In this document: positions 1,997-20,388 of the stretch, in pieces
Layout: each line of letters starts with the position of its first letter
Numbering within the stretch: position 1 is the first letter of the stretch
Origin: a virus
Reading direction: 5' to 3' (one strand)
UHGV virus genome: UHGV-0117806
DNA length: 22,166 nt
Position numbers and translations under genes: made by a program
The notes under the pieces: model-generated
The model's database searches: none
Told to the model about the DNA's origin: nothing
Seen by the model: only the letters and a program-made list of their open reading frames with translations

Positions 1997-1998
1997 GG

Positions 1999-5470: not shown

Positions 5471-5701
5471 ATGGTATACCCGACGAACGTCGTAGCGCTC
5501 GTTGAGAGCGATTTTCTGGCCACAGTGCGCGACATGATGAAAGATCGCGATAAGGCTTTCAGTCTCTACGAATGGTCGCTCAGATGTCTTCATTCAGGCG
5601 AGCACAAAGAGCTGGTGGAACAGCTGTTAGGGGAACTCATCAATGAGGTGTTTGCCCTGAACGTCCAGCTTCATGGGCGAGAAATTAATCAATCAATATA
5701 A
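5471..5701 (+). CDS. hypothetical protein (76 aa)
   Basis: AAGGA 5458-5462 then ATG 5471; no family recognised. Confidence 0.6.
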   Translation: MVYPTNVVALVESDFLATVRDMMKDRDKAFSLYEWSLRCLHSGEHKELVEQLLGELINEVFALNVQLHGREINQSI

Positions 5702-6903: not shown

Positions 6904-6995
6904 GTATTTACCTACTATAATAAATCAGGTATCTTATAAATCGTCAGGATGACGAAGTACCGGTTAGGTACGGTTCCAGGATGGAACGCCAAAAG

Positions 6996-8739: not shown

Positions 8740-8912
8740 TTTGCTCTCTCTTAGGGACTGACGTCTGAATAGAACTTCGGCAATGAGAACATTCTGCTAT
8801 GAATGCCACTTTAAATAAATGTCTGGTATGCCTGATTTTTCCTTTTGCGTGTCTTTTCGCCTTAATGCAACTCTTCACATCATCATAGAATTTGAGACAA
8901 TTAAACAATTAA

Positions 8913-8930
8913 GAAAACAACTTGTTTAAA
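8913..8930 (+). promoter_or_regulatory. palindromic operator-like motif (AAAACAA-C-TTGTTTAAA) 18 nt upstream of ATG 8948
   Basis: Member of the recurring AAAACAA-N(1-3)-TTGTTT family (see findings). Confidence 0.5.
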
Positions 8931-8947
8931 AGAATAAGGAAGAGCGC

Positions 8948-9526
8948 ATGTGTGAAAAATGCAAAAAAACTAATGCCAAAGTTGAAAGCGTGATTAAAAA
9001 AGTTGGTGCGGCCGAACTGGTTGAGATCATGGGTCTTGTGGTTGGTCACGAAGACGACGCCTCCCCTATTGACCGCCTTTTCAGCGTTCTCAAGTTCTCA
9101 AGCATGATTGATGATCCGATTGAAATTGTGATGCTGGCGCGTCATTTCGGCGAAGCGTATCTGGAAGAGAAAGAACGCGCCGACAAACTTAAGGCAACTC
9201 TGGAAATGGTAAGCAAGCCGAAGTGCTCACCGGATTCAGTCAAGGCAGATGAAACCAACGCCAGCAAAGATCGTGAAATCGCCGGGCTGAAGTCTTCTCT
9301 GGCGATGTTGCTGGCCGCTTTCAAACTGATGTCTTCCCAGGCTGGGTTCAAAATGCCTGAGCTGAACAGCGACGATCCGATGGCCCTTCGCCAGCTGTTG
9401 GGGGCAATGGCCGACCAGCTTGACGACACCAAGAGCCGTCTTGAAGACATGATGCGCGAGCTGACCCATCGCCACGACCTGAACAAACAGCCGCAGCCGC
9501 AAAAGATGCAGCCTTTACATCATTAA
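8948..9526 (+). CDS. hypothetical protein (192 aa)
   Basis: AAGGAAG then ATG 8948; preceded by the palindrome motif; followed by hairpin GGGGC-aaa-GCCCC (9534-9546). Confidence 0.7.
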   Translation: MCEKCKKTNAKVESVIKKVGAAELVEIMGLVVGHEDDASPIDRLFSVLKFSSMIDDPIEIVMLARHFGEAYLEEKERADKLKATLEMVSKPKCSPDSVKADETNASKDREIAGLKSSLAMLLAAFKLMSSQAGFKMPELNSDDPMALRQLLGAMADQLDDTKSRLEDMMRELTHRHDLNKQPQPQKMQPLHH

Positions 9527-9551
9527 TATATATGGGGCAAAGCCCCCTACT

Positions 9552-9971
9552 CTACTTTGCGGCGTCTAACAATAAGCCGCAATTTTCGCTCATGTATGCC
9601 GCAGTTGCCGGATTGCCTCTGTCATTATTCGAATTGTTCATTTCAGGGTGAGCGTCCCAGGCCACTGATTCCTGAGATGATAGATAGACGGCAAAGTCGA
9701 CGATTTCATCATCTCCGGTTTTAACGTTGCCAAGCAATTCATTTGCCTTTCTCCAGTGCTTCAGCGCGAGAATTCTGAACTGTTTTGCATTTTCAGCAGG
9801 CACTGCACTGGATTTGTCTGTGTAGATATTCGATATGTCGGCATAAAGAGCGCATTTAACATAGCTGGTTGCCCTGCCGGTCTCTTTAAAACCTTGCTCT
9901 GTGTTGTTGGCGTAGACATTCACAGCAAAAGCGCTGGCAATTCCCAGCAATATAATTTTCTTCATCATCAT
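9552..9971 (-). CDS. secreted protein with signal peptide (139 aa)
   Basis: N-terminus MMMKKIILLGIASAFAVNVYA is signal-peptide-like; no SD seen and exact start among three ATGs is uncertain. Confidence 0.55.
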   Translation of the reverse strand: MMMKKIILLGIASAFAVNVYANNTEQGFKETGRATSYVKCALYADISNIYTDKSSAVPAENAKQFRILALKHWRKANELLGNVKTGDDEIVDFAVYLSSQESVAWDAHPEMNNSNNDRGNPATAAYMSENCGLLLDAAK

Positions 9972-10096
9972 TACTCAATAAGGAGGCGACAAATATCTTA
10001 CGTGTAGTTGTCAGTTGAGTATTAAGCAAACTCAATAAACTTATAAGTATCTCCCTGTGCAGCTTGTGAATCCTTATTTATTACCTACTCAATTTT

Positions 10097-10130
10097 GAAA
10101 TAATAACACCAACAAAAAAACAATTTGTTT
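10097..10130 (+). promoter_or_regulatory. conserved promoter-operator module (TGaAATAAT extended -10-like box + AAACAATTTGTTT palindrome 10118-10130)
   Basis: gaaATAATAACACCAACAAaaAAACAATTTGTTT, 12 nt upstream of ATG 10143. Confidence 0.55.
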
Positions 10131-10142
10131 AATGGTGCAATC

Positions 10143-11828
10143 ATGAATACAGCCCTTTCCATCATTGACGCTATCACTCCAAACACTGATATCGACTACC
10201 GGCAGGAAATGAACGTTATCCACGAAATTGTGGCCGAGTGCGAGAAAGAGATCGCATTCATGCATCAGGTTCACGACTTCGTTTATGGCGACGAACGCCA
10301 CAGCATGATTAACCGCCTGCTGCGACTCAACCACCGGCCGGATGACGAGCGCACACGCTTTAACAGAGCCTGGTTGGACAAAGTCGACCTGGAATGGGTG
10401 AAACAGAACATCTGGGCTGAATACTGGAAGAAGGTCACGGATATGACCAACGTTCTGCTGATCATGCCAGCATCCCGCCGCGACGAGTGGCGTGAACAGT
10501 TTATCGAGGGCAAGCAGGAAACGATCAAGACTGACAGAACTGGCTATCAAATGAAGGTTAAAGAGTTCGTTGGTGTACCTGAGTTCAAAGCAGAAACGGT
10601 CATACCAACGATGCTTAATTTGCTGAATGACAGGCACAAATATCTCTCTGAGCGCGTGTATGGCTTGTTTAAGGCGTTGAGTCCTGCTCACAAGACCAAT
10701 AAGACGAACGGCTTCAGCGAGCGTCTGATCATCGCCGACTGCATTTCCGATTTCTGGCGGGACAGCGTCAGCGTTAACTACCGGAAAGAGGATTACATAG
10801 ACGACCTGCGCGTCATGTTGCATTTCTTTGCACACAAAGAATTTATCACCATCAACCGCACGGCCGAGATGCTGTCAGCTGCGTATCGAGCAAATGACTG
10901 CCAGACCGGCGACTGGATGAATGTCGACGGAAACCTGATGCGTGTGAAGATGTTTAAGAACGGCAACGTTCACTTTGAAATACATCCTGACGTAGCCTGG
11001 AAGCTGAATGAGGTGCTGGCTTACAGTATGCCTGCAGCAATCCCGGCGCCATGCCGTACTGCACCCAAAACACGGGCACCAAAAGAGTTCGGGTTAATCC
11101 AGAAGACGATCTCCGAGCCGGTTCGTACCGCGCTGCGCAACGGGCGATTCAGCAAAGATAAAGGCGTCTGGTACTTCTCTGATTCCAACCTCCAGAAGTC
11201 GCAGGTGGAAGAGCTTGAGCGCACACTGAACTTCATTGGCGGCGTGCAGGAGAAAAGGCACTGGCAGTTCCCGTATGAGATCGGCCATACGCTCAATACG
11301 ATTGTGGCCACCGGCTTAATACCGGATACAAAATCACACCAGTTCTACCCTACCCCGCGTTTGATAGCGGAGTACGTTGCCAGAGCCATCGAGCTGAAGC
11401 AAGGTGAGAAGCTGCTGGAGCCTGAAGCCGGGCGCGGAGATCTGCTGGCCTGCATCGACGCCAATCCGGAAGACGTTACCTGCATAGAAGTCGCACCTCT
11501 CTTCGCTGATATCCTGCTTGGCAAGGGGTACACAAATACGGTCTGCTGCGACTTCATGAAGTGGTCTGAGGTCAACGCAGGTTATCAGTTCGACAAAATC
11601 GTTATGAACCCGTCCTACTCTCTTGACCGTCACAGAGAGCATACGCTGGCCGCGCTGGAGCATCTTAAAGTCGGCGGGCGACTGGTGGCTGTATTGCCGG
11701 GTGATGCGCCAGTTCTGAACTGGATGTCGCTGGATAATTACGTTTATGCCAAAGGGAAGTCGTTTACTGACGAGTTTGAAGACACCGGAATCACTGTCAG
11801 CGTATACGTTTTCAAACGTGTAAAATGA
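10143..11828 (+). CDS. putative orphan DNA amino-methyltransferase with ~380-aa unrecognised N-terminal region (561 aa)
   Basis: C-terminal motifs in gamma-class order: FYPTP (motif X), LEPEAGRGDLL (motif I, SAM-binding), VCCDF, IVMNPSYS (motif IV variant NPSY). ATG 10143 in frame with track ORF 10125..11828. Confidence 0.8.
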   Translation: MNTALSIIDAITPNTDIDYRQEMNVIHEIVAECEKEIAFMHQVHDFVYGDERHSMINRLLRLNHRPDDERTRFNRAWLDKVDLEWVKQNIWAEYWKKVTDMTNVLLIMPASRRDEWREQFIEGKQETIKTDRTGYQMKVKEFVGVPEFKAETVIPTMLNLLNDRHKYLSERVYGLFKALSPAHKTNKTNGFSERLIIADCISDFWRDSVSVNYRKEDYIDDLRVMLHFFAHKEFITINRTAEMLSAAYRANDCQTGDWMNVDGNLMRVKMFKNGNVHFEIHPDVAWKLNEVLAYSMPAAIPAPCRTAPKTRAPKEFGLIQKTISEPVRTALRNGRFSKDKGVWYFSDSNLQKSQVEELERTLNFIGGVQEKRHWQFPYEIGHTLNTIVATGLIPDTKSHQFYPTPRLIAEYVARAIELKQGEKLLEPEAGRGDLLACIDANPEDVTCIEVAPLFADILLGKGYTNTVCCDFMKWSEVNAGYQFDKIVMNPSYSLDRHREHTLAALEHLKVGGRLVAVLPGDAPVLNWMSLDNYVYAKGKSFTDEFEDTGITVSVYVFKRVK

Positions 11829-11886
11829 TAGGTAAATACTTACCTAATTTATGTAAGAATAGAGCCACTTTATCAGAGGTAAACAC

Positions 11887-12576
11887 ATGAGCGAAAAATC
11901 GAGAATTACATTCGCCAGCGTTGATCAGGCGAAGCTGCCATTTAATTTAGTGCTACAGGGGAATGCAGGCGCGCCTGCCGGAACCATCAAAATCGACAAG
12001 GAGCTTGTGACGTTCGAAGGTAACTTTGATGAATCGGCGCAGGTTTTTATCGACCATCTGGCACGCCGTTGGAGCCAGCAGTGGAGAGACCTTGAGAAAT
12101 GCGCCAATGAGTTTGACCGGTTCATGGACGCAATGGACACAGCAAAAGAGGCTCTGGCTGCCGGCACTCCGTTAGATTTGGAGTCTCTGTTTAAAGGTGA
12201 AATGGCCTCTGCGATGTTCGCAACCATGTTTGCCGGTGAGTTTGTTCGTAGCGGGGCCAGAAACTACCTGGAGCTGGAGTACGACGTTCCTGAAATGGGT
12301 GAGTTTACCGTCACCATTCAACGCAAAGAAGGTAAGACTCCTGGCGAACGTATCGCTGAACTTGAGGCCGTTGTGGATCAGCGTAACGGCGAGTGCGTCC
12401 GTTTGATTAATGAACGTGATGCGCTGCGCGAAGAGCAGCTAAACAAAGGCTCGAACACACGCGCGGCCGCAGACATCTACTTCCAGTTGGTTGAGGAATG
12501 CCAGATCCCGCCAGGTGGCTCTTTGGTCGAGTTCGTTCGCGAATTGCAGGAGAAAGCAGAGAGGTGCGCGGCATGA
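11887..12576 (+). CDS. hypothetical protein (229 aa)
   Basis: ATG 11887, 58 nt after the methyltransferase stop; intergenic near-palindrome AGGTAAATACTTACCT (11830-11845). Confidence 0.7.
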   Translation: MSEKSRITFASVDQAKLPFNLVLQGNAGAPAGTIKIDKELVTFEGNFDESAQVFIDHLARRWSQQWRDLEKCANEFDRFMDAMDTAKEALAAGTPLDLESLFKGEMASAMFATMFAGEFVRSGARNYLELEYDVPEMGEFTVTIQRKEGKTPGERIAELEAVVDQRNGECVRLINERDALREEQLNKGSNTRAAADIYFQLVEECQIPPGGSLVEFVRELQEKAERCAA

Positions 12577-12812
12577 ATGATCTGCTTGTCGAGCGAGTCT
12601 CCGCTTTTGTTAAGTCCCCGCTGAATAATCCCCTCACCCGCGGTGAGCAGATGGAGCTGGCAAGGTGGTTTCTGCGTATCCATGAGCAGATGGAAGTTTT
12701 TAAACAGTTGCCGGATCTGCCCATTACAGACGGCCAAATTCAGTGTGCCACTTCAGTACGGTCGACGATGACAACGACGCAAACCTGCTTTTCGTCAAAT
12801 CCGAAATCATAA
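12573..12812 (+). CDS. hypothetical small protein (79 aa)
   Basis: ATG 12573 overlaps stop of 11887..12576 (ATGA). C-terminal ~20 residues look low-complexity, so a frameshift or shorter product is possible. Confidence 0.45.
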   Translation: MNDLLVERVSAFVKSPLNNPLTRGEQMELARWFLRIHEQMEVFKQLPDLPITDGQIQCATSVRSTMTTTQTCFSSNPKS

Positions 12813-12858
12813 AGTTGCCCAGGGAGAGAGAGAAATCGACGCAGAGCAGGCCCGCAAT

Positions 12859-13074
12859 ATGTGGGACGAGGCAGAAAACGCTGATGACGTAAAAGAAAGT
12901 TGCTGCTGTTTCGGTGTCGGTAACGAACTGCTGAGTCTGTTTGGTGACGATCCGTGGTATGCCGGTTGGCCAACAGTGCCAAACCCCAGATACCAATACC
13001 TAGAACGTATCATGAACGCGGTACGTGATGGGCTGAAAGAGCTTCACAATCAGATGAGAGAAGCAATTGGTTAA
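12859..13074 (+). CDS. hypothetical small protein (71 aa)
   Basis: ATG 12859 with weak SD; frame is open upstream to 12772 without an alternative start. Confidence 0.4.
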   Translation: MWDEAENADDVKESCCCFGVGNELLSLFGDDPWYAGWPTVPNPRYQYLERIMNAVRDGLKELHNQMREAIG

Positions 13075-13112
13075 GTGCTATAGTCAGGCGCTTTTATATT
13101 TATGGAGTGAAT

Positions 13113-13811
13113 ATGAAAAATATCCTACTGGCATCATTGTTGGTGGCATCGCCGGCTGTATTTGCAGCCAGCTTTGACTGCCAAAAGGCTTCGGCAGAAA
13201 TCGAACACAAAATCTGCGATAACGAACGCCTGTCAAAATTAGACGAACAACTTAGCTCTACCTATTCCAACGCACTCAAAGCAAACCCGGGGGACGCAGA
13301 CGCCTTAAAGACGGTTCAGCGTCAATGGGTAAGTATGCGTGGAAAACTCACTGGTGATAAGGCTCTGGAGTTGGCTTATCTAATCCAAATTAATGGCCTC
13401 AAGAGTTTGGATGGTTCGGCCAGCACTGCGGTGGTCAATGAGACACCAAAGCCTGTGCAGAAACAGCCTGAAGTTCAGGAAAAGACAAGCAAGGCAGACA
13501 CAAAGCAGGCTGAGAGCGGTAAAAAGCTAACTCTGGAGTCATTCCGAGCTAAGTATATTGAAGTTGACGGTGAATACTACAGCACGACATCCCTTCCCAG
13601 AGGGAGTTCGTTCTTGTTCACCTGCGCAAGTCGTATCGCAGATGACCAGGTGAATATTTGGAAGAAGGTGGCAGCCAAAGAGGGCAAGATCGATCTCTTC
13701 TTTGAACTTGAGAATCGAATACATACCGCAATGCTGAATGCCAATTTTCAGAAGCTGAATAGTGATTTAACTAAAACAGGCATTTGCGATCTGATTACCG
13801 CTGTTCCGTAA
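13113..13811 (+). CDS. secreted DUF1311 / LprI-like protein (232 aa)
   Basis: GGAG 13104-13107 then ATG 13113; signal peptide MKNILLASLLVASPAVFA; DUF1311-type pattern C-x2-A-x4-E-x2-IC…L-x2-LD…QRQWV. Confidence 0.7.
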   Translation: MKNILLASLLVASPAVFAASFDCQKASAEIEHKICDNERLSKLDEQLSSTYSNALKANPGDADALKTVQRQWVSMRGKLTGDKALELAYLIQINGLKSLDGSASTAVVNETPKPVQKQPEVQEKTSKADTKQAESGKKLTLESFRAKYIEVDGEYYSTTSLPRGSSFLFTCASRIADDQVNIWKKVAAKEGKIDLFFELENRIHTAMLNANFQKLNSDLTKTGICDLITAVP

Positions 13812-13818
13812 GCCAGAT

Positions 13819-13840
13819 AAGGCCACTAGTTGTGGCCTTA
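13819..13840. terminator. bidirectional hairpin AAGGCCAC-tagtt-GTGGCCTT
   Basis: Sits between convergent genes 13113..13811 (+) and 13867..14070 (-); immediately followed by palindrome AAACAATTTGTTT (13840-13852). Confidence 0.55.
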
Positions 13841-13866
13841 AACAATTTGTTTTATAGATGGTGAAA

Positions 13867-14070
13867 TTAATAGAACCCCAGGCGAACCAAATCCATTGGG
13901 CAGAATAGACCTTCCACACCTTCGATAGACACGCAGTCAGAGCGGCGTAATTGTTCTTCTGATTTGCCTTCTCCGCAGATTTCCTTGATGACTCCCGTTG
14001 CACCATTCGTTGCCACCATCACTCGGCTGCCGGTAGTGATAGCGTTACGGTTGCGATCATAGGTCTTCAT
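13867..14070 (-). CDS. hypothetical small protein (67 aa)
   Basis: Strong SD on minus strand (AAGGAGG, 5 nt before ATG at 14070). Confidence 0.65.
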
Positions 14071-14154
14071 CGTTTCCTCCTTTCACATGGGTCAAATCAG
14101 GTTTCAAAAATTGCCGTTTTCCATGTAGGTGCGATTTGCAAAATCTCAAGTGCC

Positions 14155-14169
14155 AAAACAAATTGTTTT
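14155..14169. promoter_or_regulatory. perfect 15-bp palindrome AAAACAAATTGTTTT in divergent intergenic region
   Basis: Same motif family as upstream of the small-gene array; about 85 nt from minus-strand ATG 14070 and 89 nt from plus-strand ATG 14258. Confidence 0.5.
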
Positions 14170-14223
14170 CACCATCTTGTTATTCAATTAACCCGTAAAG
14201 TTGACCAGTACCGTAATAAATAA

Positions 14224-14243
14224 TACTGTTTATATGTACAGTA
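14224..14243 (+). promoter_or_regulatory. LexA (SOS) box overlapping a sigma70-like promoter
   Basis: TACTGTTTATATGTACAGTA matches CTGT-N8-ACAG. TTGACC (14201-14206) + 17-bp spacer + TACTGT places the box over the -10; 15 nt upstream of ATG 14258. Confidence 0.65.
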
Positions 14244-14257
14244 TTGCGAGGCGAGCA

Positions 14258-14524
14258 ATGGGCAGCAAGAATTCTAAATATGTGATCGTCTATAGGGGCG
14301 AAGCACTCAAGCACCTAATACCCGGACAGTTCGTTTTCTTCCAACGTGAAAAAGAATACGGTGGGGGGTTCTGGCTTGGTAAAACGCATGAGGATGGGTT
14401 CGAATTTGTGCTGGAGCAACCCACTTCACTAAGTTACGGGCTTGCGTATCTGATCAGATTGTCGAGTGTCGAAGCCAGGTATATGGAGTTTGTTGATGAC
14501 ATAGACGACTTCAAACTCACCTAG
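14258..14524 (+). CDS. hypothetical SOS-box-associated small protein (88 aa)
   Basis: GAGG 14247-14250 then ATG 14258; track ORF 14201..14524 begins at a TTG that is the putative -35. Confidence 0.6.
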   Translation: MGSKNSKYVIVYRGEALKHLIPGQFVFFQREKEYGGGFWLGKTHEDGFEFVLEQPTSLSYGLAYLIRLSSVEARYMEFVDDIDDFKLT

Positions 14525-14564
14525 TCATCCCTTAAACATTTTGTTTTCTACCTTTTGTTATTTG

Positions 14565-14597
14565 AGATAATAACACAAATAAGAAAACAAATTGTTT
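14565..14597 (+). promoter_or_regulatory. conserved promoter-operator module (TGaGATAAT + AAAACAAATTGTTT)
   Basis: gaGATAATAACACAAATAAGAAAACAAATTGTTT then AAGGAG and ATG 14610; a second degenerate palindrome AAACATTTTGTTT lies at 14534-14546. Confidence 0.55.
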
Positions 14598-14609
14598 AAG
14601 GAGTTGATC

Positions 14610-14846
14610 ATGTTCGGAACCGCAAAAGACATCATCGAAAAGCTGGAGAACTACCCAGAAGATGAGCCGCTGCTGATGGTGATGTGGCACAAGGAAGATG
14701 TAGGTGAAGTGCGACCAGACCTGACTGACGAACAGTGCGTTCAGGTTTTGCGAAAAATCAAAGAGTGCCATGACACCAGCGTCGGCGTGAATTGGGATGT
14801 CATTTCTGACACGGCCAACATACTGTTTCCAAAGGAGAAGGCATGA
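14610..14846 (+). CDS. hypothetical small acidic protein (78 aa)
   Basis: AAGGAG 14598-14603 then ATG 14610; stop overlaps next start. Confidence 0.7.
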   Translation: MFGTAKDIIEKLENYPEDEPLLMVMWHKEDVGEVRPDLTDEQCVQVLRKIKECHDTSVGVNWDVISDTANILFPKEKA

Positions 14847-15163
14847 TGCTGAAAATCACCGAATCGTATAAGACGGCGGTGATCAGCACCGCCCACGTAA
14901 CGGCAGCGGATTCAGAACGGCTACCCATTGCCTGCTTCGACCCACTTACTGATCGCGGGTTGAATTGGGTACACGGTACACAGTACGGCTGGATTGTTCG
15001 TGCTGGAATGCGAGGGAATGACTGGAAGGAAGAACTGCGTGAGTACGGCATTTCCCAAGAGGCGATCTCCAACATACAGACCATACTGGATGACGGCTTT
15101 GACGTGGTTCACTTCGATTGCGACGCCGAGCTGGTGGATGGGCTACCTGCATGGGAATGGTGA
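14843..15163 (+). CDS. hypothetical acidic protein (106 aa), coupled
   Basis: AAAGGAGAAGGC then ATG 14843 overlapping upstream stop (ATGA). Confidence 0.7.
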   Translation: MMLKITESYKTAVISTAHVTAADSERLPIACFDPLTDRGLNWVHGTQYGWIVRAGMRGNDWKEELREYGISQEAISNIQTILDDGFDVVHFDCDAELVDGLPAWEW

Positions 15164-15239
15164 TCGCCCACTCGTTGAGTAATCATGTCATATAAGCGAA
15201 GAAAATTGGTAACATAGTACCGCTTTTTAATCTGATGGA

Positions 15240-15809
15240 ATGGATGTGATGGAAACCCAGAACCAACAAACAAAACCTCTGAATAATGCTTATGCGTGGC
15301 TTCTAGCTTTACTGCCTCTCTTCTTTGGAGCACCGCCAGATGAGTATTTGAATTATGCAATAGTGATAGGTGGAGTCGCTGGACTCGGCTTTCTGGTGGC
15401 TGACAGAATGGCATTGTCTGATGCAGGGTATGAACCACCGGCCATCCTGTGGGGAGTATTTCTCCTTCCGGTCTATCTCTGGAAACGTGCCACCGTTACA
15501 AAAGGCAGTCGACTTCCTTTTATCGTAATCGTCGCGTTGCTTGCTGGTAACATCTTCATCGGTATCACACACCAGGAAGAGGTTGCTCTTGAAGAAGCGG
15601 CTTGTCCTCTCGTAACGACCATTCTGAAAGAGAATAACGGAACCACAGCGCCGAAATGTATGAAGGTGACAATTCAGGACAAGGTGACGGACAAGTTCTA
15701 TAAAGCGACGGCTACGCTGGATAACGGCAACGACATAAACGTTACTCTGGAACTGACCGGCGAAAGAAACTTTTATGTGCGCGTTCCGGATGCCTATCTG
15801 AACAACTAA
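15240..15809 (+). CDS. hypothetical membrane protein (189 aa; start 15240 or 15249)
   Basis: Two or three hydrophobic segments near the N-terminus (AYAWLLALLPLFFGA, AIVIGGVAGLGFLVA, ILWGVFLLPVYLW) then a soluble C-terminal domain. Confidence 0.6.
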   Translation: MDVMETQNQQTKPLNNAYAWLLALLPLFFGAPPDEYLNYAIVIGGVAGLGFLVADRMALSDAGYEPPAILWGVFLLPVYLWKRATVTKGSRLPFIVIVALLAGNIFIGITHQEEVALEEAACPLVTTILKENNGTTAPKCMKVTIQDKVTDKFYKATATLDNGNDINVTLELTGERNFYVRVPDAYLNN

Positions 15810-16883
15810 CGGCTGCAGCTCGTTGATATTGGCGGTCACAAATTGAGGATTTCTATAAGAGTCCGTTGATCGCCACTTTCCCCACCACCCTACCCCACTC
15901 AATCCCAGGCGTGACAAGGCATTTAAGCCAATTACACCCATAAGAAAACAAATAAATAACACATCAACGTAAAGTCAACGCTTTCCCCTGATTTGGTCTA
16001 AAAAGTTGATGTTTTCGCACGCCATCTCTTATACCCAAATCCAGCGTACCAGAATCCATCTCCCTGCGACCAAAACGTCAAAAACGACTCGTGATACCAC
16101 CCAAAAACAGACACGCTCAGAAGCGCTCCCGTTGCGTTATATTGGACATCTAAACAAGTTGTTTTCAGACACAAGAAAACAAGCTAACCACACCCACAGG
16201 AAACCCAGAGACGCCATTACCCACATTCCCAAAAACAACCAACCTCTTTATGGCAGGCTACTGAAAAGACCCACCTCTTCTTCCCAGGCTACCGGACAAC
16301 CAACCTAACTTTCACAGGCAACTCGAAACATTCATACATGCGATACCCACTATACGCCATTCCCCAAACAGCGAATAAACACCAGAACCACTGAAACTCT
16401 AACGAAGCCTGTTACCGCAAGGACTCCCTCAATCACCAAAGACACGAAACAGAACATTCGCGGGGAAACGCCATTACTCAATACACGAATAACCACAAAA
16501 GCCTTTCACGCTCTCAAGGTAAACAACTCAAATACAATAACGAAAGGAATCGCCCACCTGCCATTACTCCATACACAGAGAAGAACAATCACCAAAACAA
16601 CGAGAACAACCCTGACGAAAACACAGAGATTAATCACCTCAAGAAGAACGAAACCACATACGCCGGTAGAGAGTACAACCCACCCATTTCACCCACAGGA
16701 ATAGTCGCCGTATTGAGCGTTATCAGAGAGAAGGTTTATACCCACATAAGAGAGAAAATTCGTGGGAGGTATAAGTGGGAAGGGAAGGAGGGGTATCGCC
16801 ACTTTCTTCGTATAAATTCAAGCCATAGTTTTCGTCCCCCGTAACGTCCCTATCCACCCCTTCGGTCAGCCTTCGGGCCATCC

Positions 16884-17063
16884 AGGGAAAAGGCCATGTC
16901 CCTTTTCAGGAACGGGAACGTCGCCGCAGGGAAAAGGCTGGAGGTTTTTCAGGGAAACGGTGGGAATCCCGCTATACGAACCGGGAAAAGGCTGGCTGCC
17001 GGTCGGGAAACGGGTACATCCCGGTACAGAGTGAGAGACGACTGCGGGAGCAGTGCGGGAAAT
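16884..17063. repeat. array of about 7 direct GGGAAA(A/C)GG-type repeats
   Basis: CAGGGAAAAGG 16884, CAGGAACGGGA 16908, CAGGGAAAAGG 16927, CAGGGAAACGG 16950, CGGGAAAAGGC 16982, CGGGAAACGGG 17004, CGGGAAATC 17055; spacing 23-32 bp. Track ORF 16896..17339 here is non-protein-like. Confidence 0.6.
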
Positions 17064-17330
17064 CTTCGGGAGTGCGCCTTACTCTTCACTCGCCTGAAAA
17101 TCGCGGGGGAGTGTCATTCCCTCTCGTGCAGCTACTGGACTCCAGTCTGCCAGACCATCATCGGATCTCAAGCGATTTCAGTAGGTTTTCGGGGAGAAGG
17201 ATATTCTGCCCACCAGCCCCGCGGCGCGCGTAGAGCAGAATATCGTAAATACTGGCTCCCGTGTCGTTCCCGGATATTCACTGCCCAGCCTGGCTTTCCC
17301 GACATAAAATCCTTTTTCGCCTTTGTCTTA

Positions 17331-17368
17331 TTGCGATAATAACACCAACAAGTAAACAACATATTTAG
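17331..17368 (+). promoter_or_regulatory. conserved promoter module (TGcGATAAT + degenerate palindrome)
   Basis: TTGCGATAATAACACCAACAAGTAAACAACATATTTAG upstream of ATG 17399. Confidence 0.5.
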
Positions 17369-17398
17369 ACGTTATAGAAACGAAGTGAGGATGAAGAG

Positions 17399-17617
17399 AT
17401 GATTAAGATGCCTGTGACGGTTGAGGTGTGGGGCGTGGATTCCCTGGCTGAGTGTCTGGATGCAGTGGGGCCGGAGTTGTACCGCAAGTTGTGGTCGTTC
17501 GTCCCGGCAGAAGGGGAATCGCCCAAAGGGAAGGATATCTGGCACCTGCTTAGTGAAGATGAAAAGCGGGAGCTGGTGGACGCGGTACACAGCGAGTTCC
17601 CGGACGACGAAGATTAA
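17399..17617 (+). CDS. hypothetical small strongly acidic protein (72 aa)
   Basis: GTGAGG then ATG 17399; about 18 Asp/Glu versus 7 Lys/Arg by my count, ending …EFPDDED. Confidence 0.7.
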   Translation: MIKMPVTVEVWGVDSLAECLDAVGPELYRKLWSFVPAEGESPKGKDIWHLLSEDEKRELVDAVHSEFPDDED

Positions 17618-17688
17618 GAGTGAGACCACCAGCACGGTGGCTTTTGTCGCTATTAACCTCCGGGGCAGCGCAGCACCGTAACGATATA

Positions 17689-17746
17689 CTTTGTGGCCGT
17701 TTTCTTACTGGTATTGTTTACGCAATTCAGAAAACAACATGTTTAA
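17689..17746 (+). promoter_or_regulatory. conserved promoter-operator module, class II (TTGTGG…TGgTATTGT + AACATGTT palindrome)
   Basis: CTTTGTGGCCGTTTTCTTACTGGTATTGTTTACGCAATTCAGAAAACAACATGTTTAA; near-identical to the 18180-18236 module. Confidence 0.55.
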
Positions 17747-17756
17747 GGATTGCTTT

Positions 17757-18086
17757 ATGTTTGCAAATATCGACATCAACCAAATCAAGAAAATGACTCA
17801 AAAAGAGTTTGACCAGTTTTATGAGTTAGAAGGTTGGTCTTCCACGCTGATCAATTCGCGCTGGGTGCTTGAGCTGATGACTCGTGATGATGCTCCTGCT
17901 TTGATTATTTGCGACATGGGTGAAGATGCTGACTTTATGGATATGAGCGAATTTTGTGTGGACACATACAACCGCAGCCAGAAGTACTACTTCACATGCG
18001 ATAGCGAGAATGACGTGATTTCTAAGCTCTATCTTCACCTTGTCCAGCATTGGGACGTGCAGGAATTCCTTGAGTTATTCGCGTAA
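17757..18086 (+). CDS. hypothetical acidic protein (109 aa)
   Basis: AAGGA 17745-17749 then ATG 17757; followed by hairpin AAGCCAGC-accgcct-GCTGGCTT (18096-18118). Confidence 0.7.
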   Translation: MFANIDINQIKKMTQKEFDQFYELEGWSSTLINSRWVLELMTRDDAPALIICDMGEDADFMDMSEFCVDTYNRSQKYYFTCDSENDVISKLYLHLVQHWDVQEFLELFA

Positions 18087-18179
18087 GCCCAACCAAAGCC
18101 AGCACCGCCTGCTGGCTTAACTTCTCTGTAGCCGCAGGGAAGAACCACCTTTAGATAATTCATGTGCCTGAGCAATATG

Positions 18180-18236
18180 CTTTGTAGCCGTTTTTACACT
18201 GGTATTATTTACGCCATTGAGAAAACAATTTGTTTA
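18180..18236 (+). promoter_or_regulatory. conserved promoter-operator module, class II (TTGTAG…TGgTATTAT + AAACAATTTGTTT)
   Basis: CTTTGTAGCCGTTTTTACACTGGTATTATTTACGCCATTGAGAAAACAATTTGTTTA; palindrome 18223-18235, 12 nt before ATG 18247. Confidence 0.55.
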
Positions 18237-18246
18237 CGGAGTGGTG

Positions 18247-18558
18247 ATGAATACTTCATTGGTGCTGGGTCTTGCTGAAGGCCAGGAGAGAAAAGAAAAA
18301 CCAACCTTAATGGGGCATCTCACATTGCTGGATATCGTAGCGAATGGGACTTCTATCCGTCTGTTTCGTGAAAAAGCCATTACCTTCGACGCGGGCAATT
18401 TTACGCGCTATGTGATGGTAGTTCGTCGCCAGCGTGGAAGAGGGTGGATGTCGGTCCAGAAAATGTGGCCAGAGGACCAGCTTGAACTGGCGCTGATGGA
18501 AGCCAACCGTGTCGCCCAACAAGAGATCCAACGAGCGTCTGTTCAGGCGGTAGCTTAA
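18247..18558 (+). CDS. hypothetical basic protein (103 aa)
   Basis: GGAG then ATG 18247; Arg-rich (VMVVRRQRGRGW), unlike its acidic neighbours. Confidence 0.65.
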   Translation: MNTSLVLGLAEGQERKEKPTLMGHLTLLDIVANGTSIRLFREKAITFDAGNFTRYVMVVRRQRGRGWMSVQKMWPEDQLELALMEANRVAQQEIQRASVQAVA

Positions 18559-18593
18559 ACATGTGCAAGCAGTAGTTAGTCGAATGTACGACA

Positions 18594-18620
18594 GCCCCGC
18601 CAATCCTTCGGGGCTTTTTT
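18594..18620 (+). terminator. Rho-independent terminator
   Basis: GCCCCG-ccaatcctt-CGGGGC followed by TTTTTT. Confidence 0.75.
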
Positions 18621-18679
18621 GTATTGTAAGTACTTACTTATGATAATAAAATTAAAAATTAAACACTAAGGAGAGTGAA

Positions 18680-19075
18680 ATGACCGTTAAACGCGAAAAT
18701 CTGACCCTGGATATGTATTATGCATCAGAGACGGAAAATGGAGACAAAGTTGCAAAAATTACAATTGTGCTACGCGATAATGCCTCCGGCGAAGAAGTTC
18801 ACACCAGTACCTTAACTCGCACCGGCGAGGCGACAAAGGGGAAATATTCGGTGCGTTACCAAAGCATCAGTAATGCTTCTGACCCTTTACTGATAAAACT
18901 GGAAACTCATTTCCGTGGCGCGGATCAGACGTTGTTTGAAAATTTGATGAAAAAGGTCGATACGGTTTATACATCGAGTTTAAATACCAATAGTACCTGG
19001 ATGGGACAACACGGTCTGCGAATAATCTCCGGCGAAAAGATCGACACCATTGTCCCTGAAAGCGTATTCGCTTAA
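18680..19075 (+). CDS. hypothetical protein (131 aa)
   Basis: AAGGAG then ATG 18680; preceded by TGTAAGTACTTACTTA (18625-18640) and a TTGTAA-17-TAAAAT promoter-like pair; followed by terminator 19088-19110. Confidence 0.7.
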   Translation: MTVKRENLTLDMYYASETENGDKVAKITIVLRDNASGEEVHTSTLTRTGEATKGKYSVRYQSISNASDPLLIKLETHFRGADQTLFENLMKKVDTVYTSSLNTNSTWMGQHGLRIISGEKIDTIVPESVFA

Positions 19076-19087
19076 TCCTCTTTGAAT

Positions 19088-19110
19088 GGCGCGTAAACCG
19101 CGCCATTTTC
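19088..19110 (+). terminator. Rho-independent terminator
   Basis: GGCGCG-taaac-CGCGCC followed by ATTTTC; then palindrome AACAATTTGTT (19122-19132). Confidence 0.65.
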
Positions 19111-19192
19111 TTATGCCCGATAACAATTTGTTTTCTGCCTTATCTGATTTGTGAAAATGATTTCACTGAAGCAACTTAATAAGGAAACCATC

Positions 19193-19567
19193 ATGGGACT
19201 TGATATCTATATCGAGACGCAGCCTAAAAACGATCTGAATAACGAGGCATCCAGAAAGCAGGTTGCTTACTTCCGTAAGTTCAATGCGCTCGTTGGGTGG
19301 ATGGAGCGCAACGTAGGTGAAGTCGAAAATTGTGAGCTTTTAGAATTAACGATGAATGACATTTGTTTTCTGAAGACTCATTTGATGCACATAAACGAAA
19401 GTAATTGCGAAGAGTACTTGCCTACCCAGGAAGGTTTTTTCTTCGGCAGTCAGGAGTACGATGAAGGTTACTGGCATGACGTGGGGGAGTTGAAAGAGAT
19501 TGTGGAAGATCTGATTAAGAACCACGACTTTCACAATAATAGACTGACCTTCTGCGCCTGGTGGTAA
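19193..19567 (+). CDS. hypothetical acidic protein (124 aa)
   Basis: AAGGA 19181-19185 then ATG 19193. Confidence 0.7.
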   Translation: MGLDIYIETQPKNDLNNEASRKQVAYFRKFNALVGWMERNVGEVENCELLELTMNDICFLKTHLMHINESNCEEYLPTQEGFFFGSQEYDEGYWHDVGELKEIVEDLIKNHDFHNNRLTFCAWW

Positions 19568-19569
19568 AT

Positions 19570-19713
19570 ATGGGCGATTTCAAGAAACGCCTGAAGGAGA
19601 GAGCCGAGATGGTCAGAAAGCGAAACGCCTCTTCTGTCATAAGATACGCAAGGCAGTTTAGTCGCAACAACAAATCAGTTGAGGAAAAGATCCTTAGCGT
19701 AATCGGGCGATAA
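19570..19713 (+). CDS. possible small basic peptide (47 aa; alternative start 19609 gives 34 aa)
   Basis: Below track cutoff. ATG 19570 two nt after stop of 19193..19567; internal ATG 19609 has AAGGAG 9 nt upstream; ends just before hairpin 19719-19742. Confidence 0.3.
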   Translation: MGDFKKRLKERAEMVRKRNASSVIRYARQFSRNNKSVEEKILSVIGR

Positions 19714-19718
19714 TTATT

Positions 19719-19742
19719 AAGGCCACCAGCATTGGTGGTCTT
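19719..19742 (+). terminator. hairpin terminator AAGGCCACCAG-catt-GGTGGTCTT followed by AAATGAC
   Basis: Near-identical to hairpin 20190-20213 and related to 13819-13840. Confidence 0.6.
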
Positions 19743-19850
19743 AAATGACTTTTAATAACCGAAGGTTAGTTTGAAACCTGGCTATCAACTTCCAGAACCT
19801 TTCTTGTGTATTCAGCCTGTATTAACTTCTTTTATGCCTTATCTACACTG

Positions 19851-19883
19851 CGATAATTACACCAACAAGAAAACAATATGTTT
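19851..19883 (+). promoter_or_regulatory. conserved promoter-operator module (TGcGATAAT + AAACAATATGTTT)
   Basis: CGATAATTACACCAACAAGAAAACAATATGTTTACG, then GAGG and ATG 19897. Confidence 0.55.
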
Positions 19884-19896
19884 ACGCAGTGAGGAT

Positions 19897-20184
19897 ATGC
19901 TCATGACTGATTTCACCATTACCCCTAAAGCACAAAATGTATTCCTTGAATCATGGCTGGACTTGCCGGAAACAGAACAGCAAGAAATGGATCATGTGGA
20001 ATATGACGAGCAGGTAAGCACGCGATTCTTCCACTTTGAGGGCTGCGTTTACGACATTGCCGACTTCATGCGAGATGACCGCTTCCCTGAATGGCACGCA
20101 AGCTATCCACTAAACGCCTTCGCCATGCTGATGATCCGTGTGGATGATTCAGGGGATACCATCGACATCGGTCTGCTCCACTAA
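19897..20184 (+). CDS. hypothetical acidic protein (95 aa; start 19897 or 19903)
   Basis: GAGG 19891-19894 then ATG 19897. Confidence 0.65.
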   Translation: MLMTDFTITPKAQNVFLESWLDLPETEQQEMDHVEYDEQVSTRFFHFEGCVYDIADFMRDDRFPEWHASYPLNAFAMLMIRVDDSGDTIDIGLLH

Positions 20185-20189
20185 AGAGT

Positions 20190-20213
20190 AAGGCCACCAA
20201 TGCTGGTGGCCTT
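20190..20213 (+). terminator. hairpin terminator AAGGCCACCA-atgc-TGGTGGCCTT followed by AAATGAC
   Basis: Perfect 10-bp stem directly after stop of 19897..20184. Confidence 0.65.
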
Positions 20214-20334
20214 AAATGACCATCCTGTTTCCCGCAGGCTAAAAACACCAACCTCTTACCTCCAGGCAACCGACAAACCCACCTGTTCCCGTCCGGCTAC
20301 CGCAACTTTCCACTTTGACGCCTTATTCGTACAA

Positions 20335-20367
20335 CGATAATTAACACCAACAAGAAAACAATTTGTT
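20335..20367 (+). promoter_or_regulatory. conserved promoter-operator module (GATAAT + AAAACAATTTGTT)
   Basis: CGATAATTAACACCAACAAGAAAACAATTTGTTATTTA, then AAGGA and ATG 20389. Confidence 0.55.
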
Positions 20368-20388
20368 ATTTACGATAAGGAATTAATC

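Follow-up and report, generated by a model that had tools for sequence, protein, structure and literature searches.

The window, that is, the whole stretch of 22,166 nucleotides of the virus genome UHGV-0117806 that was analysed, is part of a phage-plasmid of the SSU5/pHCM2 type. Positions 15821–17398 are occupied by a tract flanked on both sides by variable small genes. On the left lies a variable cargo site starting exactly at 15820 (MetRS, DUF262, restriction-modification genes and others), and on the right the gene at 17399–17617. Hence a recombination hotspot, as suggested in the first-pass annotation, describes the flanks and not the tract itself. The tract is conserved and non-coding, has a skewed composition, repeats and an operator, and lacks marked RNA structure; none of the records examined carries an annotation for it. 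Our literature search found no description of this region, including in the text of the phage-plasmid and integrons-in-phages papers. It is a real non-coding element under strong purifying selection.

Distribution and conservation

Collinear copies of the tract 15821–17398 are present in no fewer than 858 + 31 plasmid and 12 phage records; in one plasmid collection, about 900 records of SSU5/pHCM2-type phage-plasmids of gut bacteria carry it. Clinical Escherichia, Klebsiella, Salmonella, Enterobacter and Citrobacter commonly harbour such elements, which also bear resistance and defence cargo at a few hot spots. The comparisons were based on 36 representatives (33 non-distant ones for the operator count), an alignment of ten sequences, eight diverse relatives for the PGAP annotation, and one complete relative of 113 kb.

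The identity of the tract between clades is 66–85%, compared with 47–72% for the neighbouring orthologous genes and 30–48% for their third codon positions. In 20 out of 21 clade pairs, identity per alignment column is higher in the tract than in the 4.4 kb downstream of it. The conservation rises from 0.5 to 0.9 at 15820, forming an abrupt left boundary, and the tract is kept even in L010, where the left neighbour is divergently oriented. The 1.5-kb tract is the best-conserved sequence of its neighbourhood, situated right at the edge of a cargo hot spot, and is a useful sequence marker for the family. That the site has a function, cis-acting or otherwise non-coding, was put forward earlier in general terms and is supported by this family-wide excess of conservation over the neighbouring genes. 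Even a very distant clade among the 36 representatives, hardly alignable with the others, retains several parts of the tract:

at the left, an inverted repeat around TTTCTATAAG
an operator belonging to the local AAACAAnTTGTTT regulon
the 19-nt motif GCCATTACYCAATACAC, in 3–6 copies
three CACC..CAGGC units of about 30 nt
a purine/pyrimidine hairpin, pairing in the plus strand only
a GC-rich half rich in GGGAA
the promoter of the next gene

Coding potential

The tract had been described as gene-free, and this holds: PGAP reports no CDS in it in eight diverse relatives, and the substitution pattern is not codon-like. Substitutions are distributed over the codon positions as 411/387/428 (p=0.35), showing no three-base periodicity, and the lengths of indels (8–15, 29–33 and 254 nt) are not multiples of three. 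None of the open reading frames is common to all ten homologues. Six frames overlapping the tract, including 16006–16308 and 16896–17339, yielded no Pfam or PHROG families above noise; the sole protein-family match is a marginal one, to a PHROG (E=0.007), for the frame 15309–15962 on the minus strand, mostly outside the tract. Tiny minus-strand frames starting at the ATGGC of each GCCAT motif were rejected, as their length varies from 6 to more than 50 codons. The alternative offered earlier, decayed regulon modules or gene decay, is contradicted by the purifying selection, and none of about 900 homologues has an intact gene across the interval.

The left block and the operators

The left part of the tract contains a conserved boundary block and two copies of the promoter/operator of the local regulon:

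15821–15880, plus strand: left boundary block with an abrupt rise of conservation; its core is near-invariant in the 36 representatives
15830–15838 and 15867–15875: inverted repeat, TGGCGGTCA and TGATCGCCA, flanking the near-invariant TTTCTATAAGA (15850–15860)
15822 and 15865: copies of CGTTGA in the left block
15921–15960, plus strand: degenerate copy of the regulon promoter/operator, repeat family D2/D12
15962–15968 and 16006–16012: 7-bp inverted repeat CATCAAC/GTTGATG
15964 and 15975: two copies of TCAACG, 3' of the degenerate operator copy
16133–16164, plus strand: TTGCGTTATATT with a −10-like TATATT (16138–16143), followed by the operator palindrome
16152–16164: perfect operator palindrome AAACAAGTTGTTT, with a variable centre base

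The left inverted repeat has seven pairs, one of them being G·U in 25 out of 26 sequences. One GC-to-AU double change is seen in the distant clade; the covariation is weak. The TCAACG/CGTTGA inverted hexamers of the first 200 bp resemble binding sites in double-stranded DNA.

Both regulon copies had been considered decayed. The copy at 15921–15960 is indeed degenerate, yet it is conserved in this form, the region 15921–16012 being among the best-conserved blocks (0.89–0.95), and its equivalent in the distant clade is the perfect AAACAACTTGTTT. The copy at 16152–16164, on the other hand, is not decayed at all, but is a perfect conserved palindrome. Of the 33 non-distant representatives, 32 have it with at most one mismatch, the centre base being variable. 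The palindrome AAACAAGTTGTTT occurs 13 times in the window, whereas about two occurrences are expected. The −10 box at 16138–16143 scores well in some clades only, and a search for a strong conserved sigma-70 promoter serving the tract itself found none. All promoter/operator copies point rightward, like nearly all genes of the element. TATAAG was considered as a phage-specific promoter motif and discarded, not being spread genome-wide.

Repeats

Two types of direct repeats are present:

16213–16231, 16356–16374, 16470–16488 and 16560–16578, plus strand: four direct copies of the 19-nt motif GCCATTACYCAATACAC(G)
16021–16039: weaker fifth copy of this motif
16235–16328, plus strand: three units arranged head to tail, each about 30 nt long and built on the core CACC-N12-14-CAGGC
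20185–20388, plus strand: second small CACC..CAGGC module outside the tract, with three units at 20213–20305, repeat family D10

The four repeats noticed in the first-pass annotation start at 16213, 16356, 16470 and 16560. The GCCAT core is invariant in the ten-sequence alignment, and relatives have 3–7 GCCAT(T/C) cores with the spacing conserved clade by clade. The copies are 41–193 bp apart and unphased, and between clades the spacers differ by indels; the composition of the spacers is conserved, and their sequence is not. When the complete 113-kb relative was scanned with the motif PWM, scores of 24–31 were obtained inside the tract only, with at most 15 elsewhere. No sequence complementary to the motif was found within the 113-kb element.

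The triplet of CAGGC repeats, also noticed earlier, is present at 16235–16328 with the period of 30–31 nt, and has extra copies at 20213–20305. The distant clade has three such units at 29-nt spacing, according to the unit catalogue of the 36 representatives. The spacer 20185–20388 is the one other C-rich, G-poor intergenic spacer of the window (C/G 1.97). Its units sit between a stop-codon hairpin (20189–20215) and the next regulon promoter, so that the promoter separates them from the next gene. The nhmmer matches to model positions of about 400–500 recur at the corresponding place in many relatives.

Several descriptions of the units were rejected. Three small minus-strand hairpins formed by them have pairing partners that are either invariant or lost in the distant clade. 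A boxA-like antitermination signal, CCTCTTTA, seen by eye in unit 1, is not conserved in other clades. The three tandem units of about 30 nt recall a type III toxin-antitoxin array (ToxI-like), but it has no toxin partner of the ToxN/AbiQ type: none of the neighbouring proteins is ToxN-like or matches any PADLOC model or Pfam.

Composition and lack of RNA structure

The repeats are embedded in a compositionally distinct core:

15880–16720, plus strand: A+C-rich, G- and T-poor core, A+C 68.6%, C/G 2.2 over 841 nt

The strand skew reported initially is real, whereas the description of the plus strand as almost entirely A+C is wrong, as the A+C content of 15850–16700 is 68.4% (A 0.37, C 0.32, G 0.14, T 0.18). 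The window mean is 50.5% with the standard deviation of 5.4 in 200-nt windows, and the core is the sole stretch above 70%. The GC skew in the skewed region is −0.30 to −0.43, and the GC content across the core is 44–47%. The core is seen in all 36 representatives, with A+C of 65–71%, C/G of 1.8–2.65 and the length of about 794–866 nt. The distant clade retains A+C of 65–73% per 100 nt across most of the tract. The 78-nt windows with C/G of at least 2 are nearly continuous over 15826–16709, and no other such run in the window comes near this length. The substitution spectrum is uninformative as a test for selection on composition: A↔C changes comprise 20% and G↔T changes 5%, matching the base frequencies.

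A plus-sense RNA of the core would be C-rich, G-poor and essentially structure-free, with the minimum free energy of −0.14 kcal/mol per nt (z=−0.2), and the energy of the consensus plus-strand structure is about zero across 16300–16780. No unusual folding energy was found in either half of the tract on either strand (z about 0). The whole window produced no Rfam matches at the gathering score; at E up to 10, with CsrB, 6S, GOLLD, ROOL, OLE, put and boxA-type elements included in the search, the lone match was a chance one to a eukaryotic lncRNA (E=2.6). A large structured non-coding RNA was rejected, given that z is about zero and only two local hairpins were found, both with weak covariation.

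The hairpin, the GC-rich half and the right end

The second hairpin and the right half of the tract contain the following features:

16769–16819, plus strand: hairpin hpA, with the homopurine arm GGGAAGGGAAGGAGGGG (16777–16793), a pyrimidine arm and a UAUCGC loop
16816–16821: invariant ATTCAA, 3' of hpA
16880–17310, plus strand: GC-rich second half with GGGAA(A/C)(A/C)GG repeats, less conserved (0.46–0.84) and indel-tolerant
17210–17217, minus strand: Chi site, one copy
17311–17366, plus strand: extended −10 promoter with TG at 17332–17333 and GATAAT at 17335–17340, repeat families D2, D5 and D7
17354–17366: operator-like sequence with two mismatches

In hpA, 89.5% of alignment cells are paired in register, compared with 54–67% when the arms are slid. 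G·U accounts for one in four paired cells, meaning that only the plus strand pairs. The covariation is weak (0.234 vs 0.209, attained by 11 out of 500 shuffles).

In the region 16880–17200, GGGAA occurs 8 times (0.6 expected) and GGA 16 times (7.9 expected). CAGGGA is missing from the distant clade, in which GGGAAC alone recurs, and there is no match to the CsrB model. SSU5 and pHCM2 have a 254-nt insertion after 17305. The promoter region 17311–17366 is conserved at 0.93, with the promoter score kept in all relatives; this promoter serves the gene 17399–17617 and closes the module on the right.

Proposed function

Our best guess is that the tract stops transcription and carries repeated binding motifs. 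It would act via its plus strand as a single-stranded nucleic acid, most likely as an RNA co-directional with the flanking genes. The strand asymmetry kept in all 36 representatives favours such single-strand action, since dispersed sites in duplex DNA do not evidently require any asymmetry. The G·U pairs in both flanking hairpins, compatible with the plus strand only, point to the plus-strand polarity, as does the rightward orientation of all promoter/operator copies and of nearly all genes. That the tract is transcribed, and in this direction, that Rho takes part and that some factor recognises the repeats are inferences.

Our specific proposal is tentative and may well prove wrong in this form: the tract would be a repressor-controlled plus-strand module, the RNA of which, free of structure, rich in C and poor in G, would load Rho and halt transcription next to the cargo hot spot. 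Transcription would come in from the variable cargo on the left, or begin at weak internal promoters with the operator of the neighbouring early genes. RNA polymerase would then enter approximately 850 nt of untranslated, C-rich, G-poor and structure-free sequence, and such RNA should be an ideal substrate for Rho loading (rut). The repressor bound to the internal operator would constitute an added roadblock, and the plus-strand hairpin at 16769–16819 an added pause. The combined barrier would insulate the downstream repressor-controlled genes from the cargo hot spot. The 19-nt motif (4–6 copies) and the three CACC..CAGGC units could be recognition sites for a putative phage or host factor, probably modulating the barrier. 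If true, this would explain how arbitrary cargo inserts near repressor-controlled phage genes without deregulating them.

A rut site is expected to comprise at least about 80 nt of untranslated sequence with more C than G and little structure in the transcribed strand; the core of the tract has these properties on the plus strand, the presumed transcribed one, and all 36 representatives are likewise C-rich and G-poor. The second C-rich, G-poor spacer with CACC..CAGGC units is situated where a terminator belongs, which supports the barrier, and the lack of a strong conserved sigma-70 promoter for the tract fits a barrier better than a gene for an abundant RNA. Known rut sites are about 80–100 nt long and poorly conserved in sequence. 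The barrier does not explain the 30–90-nt blocks with conservation above 85%, the 19-nt motif unique in the genome, and the conserved GC-rich half. Against it are also the retention of the tract in L010 despite the divergent left neighbour, the weak covariation of both hairpins, and the duplex-like inverted hexamers.

Alternative explanations

The tract could act as DNA. It is rather unlikely that it is an origin of lytic (phage-mode) replication, with the 19-bp repeats and the 30-bp units being initiator-binding iterons and the operator-controlled promoter providing transcriptional activation or an R-loop primer. The direct repeats are iteron-sized (17–22 bp), have one orientation and are unique in the genome, the period of the CACC..CAGGC units is about three helical turns, inverted hexamers and an inverted repeat lie at the left end, and the non-coding DNA of the tract is very highly conserved. 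Transcription-activated phage origins with a repressor operator are known in lambda and P1, and here, too, a repressor operator is situated inside. The plasmid replicon, RepA with its own iterons, is elsewhere, at 1270–3600, and a natural IS3 deletion derivative, a plasmid contig, has no tract, so the latter may be dispensable for plasmid maintenance. (The tract was rejected as the plasmid origin, since a Rep3-type RepA at 1999–3054 has its own ACTCACTACAGTGGATA iterons in that region.) The strand asymmetry may mark an R-loop-primed origin: leftward transcription may produce a G-rich RNA (GC skew about +0.4) displacing the non-folding strand, and a conserved extended −10 motif, TGTTATTAT, is present on the minus strand at 17336–17344. 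However, the tract has no DnaA boxes beyond three matches with one mismatch, no IHF consensus and only two GATC sites; its GC content is about 45%, and a long AT-rich unwinding element is absent. The repeats, 41–193 bp apart, are unphased with spacer indels between clades, both flanks are variable with no adjacent initiator gene, and an origin of 1.5 kb would be exceptionally large. The cumulative GC skew of the complete relative shows no switch at the tract beyond a local anomaly and follows gene orientation only, and the strict G4 motif (G3+N1-12)3G3+, present in the window, is found in only 5 of the 36 representatives. A DNA-level cis site for entry or packaging, similar to the T5 injection stop signal region and separating the first-entering early-gene block, is very improbable. 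Like the T5 region, the tract (1.59 kb) is non-coding, has ordered repeats and is better conserved than the adjacent frames, and on the genome map some 11–13 kb separate it from the terminase end; it adjoins many small genes each with its own promoter. On the other hand, paired DnaA boxes are what defines the T5 region, and the tract lacks them; the strand skew is also left unexplained. We know of no two-step injection or fixed genome ends in SSU5-type phages. We see hardly any chance that the tract is a partition (parS) or transfer (oriT) site, both suggested by the first-pass annotation, or decayed genes or regulon modules drifting neutrally. It holds repeats and two exact copies of ATCGCCACTTTC containing the P1 boxB hexamer TCGCCA, but P1/P7-type boxes are not above chance (one boxA ATTTCAC and two boxB TCGCCA, which is the window background), there is no IHF site, parAB of a close relative lies about 16 kb from the tract, and the IS3 derivative exists as a plasmid contig without the tract. 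As to transfer, we are dealing with a phage-plasmid replicon; typing places 829 of 858 carriers among the non-mobilizable plasmids, and no relaxase was found in a complete relative. Neutral drift is at odds with selection much stronger than at the synonymous sites of neighbouring genes, and with the absence of homologues having a frame across the interval.

Conversely, the RNA could act in trans. It is rather unlikely, in our estimate, that the tract encodes a plus-sense long non-coding RNA of about 0.7–1 kb, bounded by hairpins, whose 19-nt motifs (4–6) and three CAGGC units form a decoy, or sponge, for a single-stranded-RNA-binding factor or for G/U-rich small RNAs. The repeated motifs in unstructured spacers, with 3–7 GCCAT cores depending on the clade, resemble protein-sponge RNAs; the composition of the spacers is kept while their sequence changes, plus-sense-specific hairpins border the A/C-rich core on either side, GGA and GGGAA are over-represented in the second half, and the low U content would probably limit RNase E cleavage. 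However, Rho terminates untranslated C-rich, G-poor RNA, and should do so here before the transcript is complete. Moreover, no strong conserved promoter was found, no Rfam family, including CsrB, matches even at E up to 10, the CAGGGA motifs are lost in the distant clade, the 113-kb element contains no complementary partner, and RNA motifs bound by proteins are seldom as long as 19 nt. For an Hfq sponge, the counts compared with dinucleotide shuffles are 5 vs 5.9 for (ARN)3, 0 vs 1.1 for (ARN)4 and 3 vs 2.2 for AANAANAA; a CrcZ-type sponge was rejected, as neither (ARN)n nor AANAANAA is enriched. Quite unlikely, too, is a phage-plasmid RNA of a novel kind, C/A-rich and without structure, about 0.7–1 kb in length and with a hairpin at each end, that would act on induction as a trans decoy for a host factor binding single-stranded RNA, for instance by titrating Rho, which would give antitermination throughout the genome, or by sequestering G/U-rich small RNAs. 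Should the tract prove to be either a lytic origin or a decoy RNA, the switch from plasmid to phage would have a key control point here, and the element would be of a new type.

Comparison with known systems

Close parallels of the proposed transcription barrier include Rho-dependent terminators with their rut sites, such as lambda tR1. Like these, the tract is untranslated, C-rich, G-poor, structure-free and co-oriented with the presumed transcription, with a hairpin following, its Rho dependence being predicted. It differs in being about ten times longer and in having long conserved blocks and an array of 19-nt motifs, absent from rut sites. The satellite phage-plasmid P4 is likewise temperate, can live as a plasmid and has repeated elements in a long leader; its untranslated immunity leader undergoes Rho-dependent premature termination. 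In P4, however, the repeats complement one another (seqA/C with the CI RNA); those of the tract are all direct.

Iteron origins and copy-control arrays (P1 oriR/incA, lambda ori) resemble the tract in having direct repeats of 17–22 bp in one orientation at one locus, in conserved non-coding DNA with a repressor-controlled promoter nearby. In contrast, the repeats of the tract are dispersed and unphased, with no DnaA, IHF or AT-rich element and no adjacent initiator, and the Rep3-type RepA has different iterons 13 kb away. With sponge RNAs (CsrB/RsmZ, CrcZ of Pseudomonas) the tract shares a short motif multiplied among poorly conserved spacers in a lineage-dependent copy number, and CrcZ presents its motifs in single-stranded, A-rich RNA. 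Unlike them, the tract has no Rfam match, (ARN)n enrichment, strong promoter or terminator, and its motif is 19 nt long; unlike in CsrB, GGA is confined to the second half and is not conserved in the distant clade.

In cluster A mycobacteriophages, stoperators are repressor sites that block elongation (PMC9283540). They share with our case a repressor site in a promoter-poor region that is transcribed, presumably so in the tract, and many sites genome-wide in one orientation to transcription. The site of the tract differs from the stoperators in being a symmetric 13-bp palindrome, usually just 3' of an extended −10 promoter, and its role as a roadblock is only presumed.

The last parallel is T5, to which, to our knowledge, SSU5-type phages are not related. 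The T5 region, untranslated repeat region 3, or the injection stop signal region of Davison, contains eight paired DnaA boxes (bioRxiv 10.1101/866236). It is a non-coding region of 1662 bp with direct and inverted repeats in a conserved order, more conserved than the adjacent frames (bioRxiv 10.1101/866236). The tract has no DnaA boxes, and in T5 no 850-nt A+C strand skew is reported; there is no sequence similarity between the two. Nevertheless, both are gene-free stretches of about 1.6 kb, with a family-wide order of repeats, variable adjacent frames, and small early genes nearby.

Conservation and distribution of the tract

The region 15821–17398 contains no called genes. PGAP calls none there in eight diverse relatives, and the first-pass annotation had placed this gene-free tract correctly. 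In an alignment of ten sequences (66–85% identity), substitutions show no three-base periodicity (411/387/428, p=0.35), the indels are of 8–15, 29–33 and 254 nt, and no open frame is common to every sequence. Against Pfam the ORFs of the tract have no match, and against PHROG none above noise. The minus strand of each GCCAT motif reads (G-rich)-TAATGGC, a possible ribosome site and start codon; since the resulting peptides vary in length from 6 to more than 50 residues and show no relationship from clade to clade, this reading was rejected.

Sequence comparison indicates strong selection on the tract. The window's copy is 66–67% identical to that of the Klebsiella relatives over about 1525 nt, whereas the downstream orthologous genes are 57% and 47% identical, their third codon positions (30–35%) being at saturation. 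For the Enterobacter relative, the corresponding values are 85% in the tract and 63–65% in the neighbouring genes (third positions 41–43%). The share of identical columns is higher in the tract than in the downstream 4.4 kb in 20 out of 21 pairs of clade representatives. Conservation begins sharply at 15820. The cargo to the left differs among relatives (MetRS, DUF262 and restriction-modification genes; a 1.2-kb unknown gene in SSU5), and the small genes immediately to the right also vary between clades.

In a profile search of 80 viral contigs, nearly all carried the tract at full length and in collinear order. The collinear matches include a distant clade of 31 further Klebsiella and Citrobacter plasmids, where the protein neighbouring the tract is only 48% identical. 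The distant clade keeps the whole architecture, from the left end to the right promoter: an inverted repeat around TTTCTATAAG and an intact operator (the palindrome of the local regulon) in the left part; a core of about 800 nt in which A+C is for the most part 65–73% per 100 nt, with three CAGGC units at 29-nt spacing and three or four GCCAT(C) motifs; and, in the right part, a G-rich block, a AAATTCAAGC box, GGGAAC repeats and the terminal promoter. The selection and the retained architecture contradict the earlier reading of the tract as decayed regulon modules. No homologue with intact genes across the tract was found, and gene decay and partition are essentially excluded, while a transfer site is very unlikely. 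Of the first-pass interpretation, a functional non-coding site in the broad sense is retained, while the specific options are not supported. The element lacks annotation in about 900 public records and matches no known sequence family; no mention of it was found in the literature searched.

Some individual records stand out. Large Klebsiella plasmids (190–305 kb; records L011 4001–4470, from NZ_CP138774, and H75–H80) carry no more than the initial 470 bp of the tract (window 15821–16294), adjoining a DUF262 gene and a type I restriction-modification system. As the right breakpoint of these partial copies falls inside the CAGGC units, it suggests recombination at these repeats. Record L051 (1–3340) is a deletion derivative mediated by an IS3-family element. 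Starting at the terminal promoter it is 98% identical to record L052; in place of the tract and about 12 kb upstream of it stands the IS, adjoining a phage adenine methyltransferase gene. The 29.6-kb contig L013 (JAEWTL010000044.1), labelled "MAG: Bacillota bacterium", has a full-length tract about 87% identical to that of the window and a neighbouring protein that is 100% identical; the contig was probably mis-binned and comes from an enterobacterial phage-plasmid.

Host element and regulon

The tract and its surroundings match plasmids of about 110 kb, mostly non-mobilizable, from Escherichia, Klebsiella, Enterobacter, Salmonella and Citrobacter, and also Salmonella phage SSU5 and related phages. 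A typical complete relative, NZ_CP010244 (113 kb), encodes terminase, portal, capsid, tail, DnaE, a DnaB-like helicase, ligase, a RepA replicon and Phd/Doc, nearly all genes being oriented as the window plus strand. Based on these matches and this gene content, we assign the window to an SSU5/pHCM2-type phage-plasmid. The plasmid replicon is inside the window at 1270–3600, far from the tract. The first 7.7 kb of the window departs from plasmid CP088502, which is 99.7% identical elsewhere. Two cargo genes upstream of the tract have a defence or anti-defence flavour.

Replicon and cargo features
1270–1700, 1878–1996, 3084–3600: ACTCACTACAGTGGATA iterons, at least 10 copies, flanking RepA
1321–1525: four 41-nt tandem repeats within the iteron fields
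1999–3054, minus strand: RepA, Rep3-family, between two iteron fields
7780–8739, minus strand: Mrr-like nuclease domain protein with a ZorD-like C-terminus
10125–11828, plus strand: DUF4942 protein, C-terminal half methyltransferase-like (PADLOC mad2 / MTase_II matches)

The palindrome AAACAAnTTGTTT has 13 matches in the window, against about two expected (8915, 10118, 13840, 14156, 14534, 14585, 16152, 17354, 17732, 18223, 19121, 19871 and 20356). Outside the tract, an extended -10 promoter (TGnGATAAT) precedes it by about 13 nt, and the pair stands before nearly every small gene at 8.9–20.4 kb, forming a regulon over 8890–20368. The promoter core ATTGCGATAATAA resembles the P1 C1 operator consensus. 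On the opposite strand, the regulon motif also has the form of an extended -10 (TGTTATTAT).

Other repeats are dispersed over the window. Exact Chi sites (GCTGGTGG) number 13 in 22 kb on both strands, compared to about 0.7 expected by chance and at about three times the density of the E. coli chromosome (148, 1170, 5094, 5611, 6363, 15130, 17210, 17572, 17626, 19723, 20202, 20908 and 21077); several are inside terminator-like hairpins. The gene at 19771–20184 is bracketed by a 27-nt inverted repeat (19717–19743 / 20189–20215, 96% complementary), each arm being a perfect GGCCACCA..TGGTGGCC hairpin with Chi inside; the whole resembles a cassette. A second palindrome family, GGTAAGTACTTACC, is situated mostly directly after gene ends (188–212, 523–544, 4705–4729, 5694–5725, 6890–6914, 11821–11852, 18617–18645) and may represent bidirectional terminators or another operator set.

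Anatomy of the tract

The anatomy was derived from 36 representatives, mutually less than 96% identical.

Features of the tract
15821–15880: left inverted repeat around invariant TTTCTATAAGA, arms 15830–15838 / 15867–15875, seven pairs
15921–16012: degenerate promoter/operator copy, then TCAACG/CGTTGA hexamers in both orientations
16133–16164: -10-like TATATT (scoring well in some clades only), then operator
15880–16720: A+C-rich core, 794–866 nt among representatives
within the core: 19-nt motif GCCATTACYCAATACAC, four copies
within the core: three head-to-tail units of about 30 nt, CACC-N12–14-CAGGC
16769–16819: hairpin with a homopurine and a pyrimidine arm
16880–17310: GC-rich, GGGAA-rich half, indels tolerated
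17311–17366: extended -10 promoter and operator of the next gene

The first-pass observations are largely right. A repeat finder recovered the four GCCATT repeats (near 16212, 16355, 16469 and 16560) and the three CAGGC units (16254–16330) where they had been reported. The palindrome at 16152–16164, described as decayed, in fact matches AAACAAnTTGTTT perfectly; this operator has at most one mismatch, with a free centre base, in 32 of the 33 non-distant representatives. The base skew holds up and is seen nowhere else in the window, although "almost entirely A+C" was an overstatement: at 15850–16700, A+C is 68% (A 0.37, C 0.32, G 0.14, T 0.18), the window mean being 50.5% (sd 5.4). The core has A+C of 65–71% and C/G of 1.8–2.65 in every representative. 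Relatives have three to seven GCCAT cores with clade-specific spacing. In a complete 113-kb relative, the 19-nt motif scores 24–31 inside the tract only, and at most 15 elsewhere.

Strand and structure

The A+C asymmetry is kept in spacers whose sequence diverges, which points to function as a single strand, as double-stranded binding sites do not obviously require it. Since A and C cannot pair together, the plus strand forms only very weak structure (-0.14 kcal/mol per nt, z about 0); over 16300–16780, the energy of the consensus structure for the family is essentially zero. In the left inverted repeat, 25 of 26 sequences have a G.U at one of the pairs, and the distant clade shows one GC-to-AU double change. 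The 16769–16819 hairpin is 89.5% paired in register, compared to 54–67% with the partner slid. A quarter of its pairs are G.U, hence the minus strand or a DNA cruciform would pair no better than the controls; its covariation is weak (0.234 vs 0.209, reached by 11 of 500 shuffles). The promoter/operator copies all point rightward. Taken together, the asymmetry, weak folding, G.U pairs and promoter direction favour action as a putative plus-sense RNA.

Possible function

In an enterobacterium, a long untranslated, structure-free, C-rich and G-poor RNA loads Rho. Here, 78-nt windows with C/G of at least 2 are nearly continuous over 15826–16709, with nothing comparable elsewhere in the window. The sole other C-rich, G-poor spacer, 20185–20388 (C/G 1.97), has three more CACC..CAGGC units, situated after a hairpin abutting the stop codon of the gene at 19771–20184 and before the next regulon promoter, exactly where a terminator would belong; this small copy is also present in relatives. 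The tract has no strong conserved promoter of its own. Given the composition suited to Rho loading, the 20185–20388 copy, the location beside a cargo hot-spot and the lack of such a promoter, the best-supported model, still a tentative one, is a transcription barrier. It would block read-through from arbitrary cargo into the repressor-controlled genes downstream. The internal operator could be a repressor roadblock or control a weak internal start, the 16769–16819 hairpin could act as a pause, and the conserved blocks, the 19-nt motif array and the GC-rich half are putative recognition sites for a further factor. However, the barrier itself does not explain the conservation of the 30–90 nt blocks, the array and the GC-rich half.

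The genome-unique, iteron-sized repeats, the inverted hexamers, the operator inside the tract and the fact that an IS3-mediated deletion derivative lacks the tract would suit a lytic replication origin. This is unlikely, as the tract has no DnaA or IHF sites, AT-rich element or adjoining initiator, the repeat spacing is unphased and indel-tolerant, and the size is 1.5 kb. Motifs within unstructured spacers are also a design consistent with a trans-acting decoy or sponge RNA, a doubtful reading too: the tract has no strong conserved promoter, Rho should terminate such an RNA, no Rfam relative was found, and Hfq motifs are not enriched.

Of the systems described in the literature, the nearest in kind is an untranslated repeat region of 1662 bp in phage T5, which contains the injection stop signal and is better conserved than the variable neighbouring ORFs (bioRxiv 10.1101/866236). 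The tract resembles that region in being more conserved than its variable neighbours. The T5 region is defined by paired DnaA boxes, absent in the tract, and a T5 iss-like site is very improbable.
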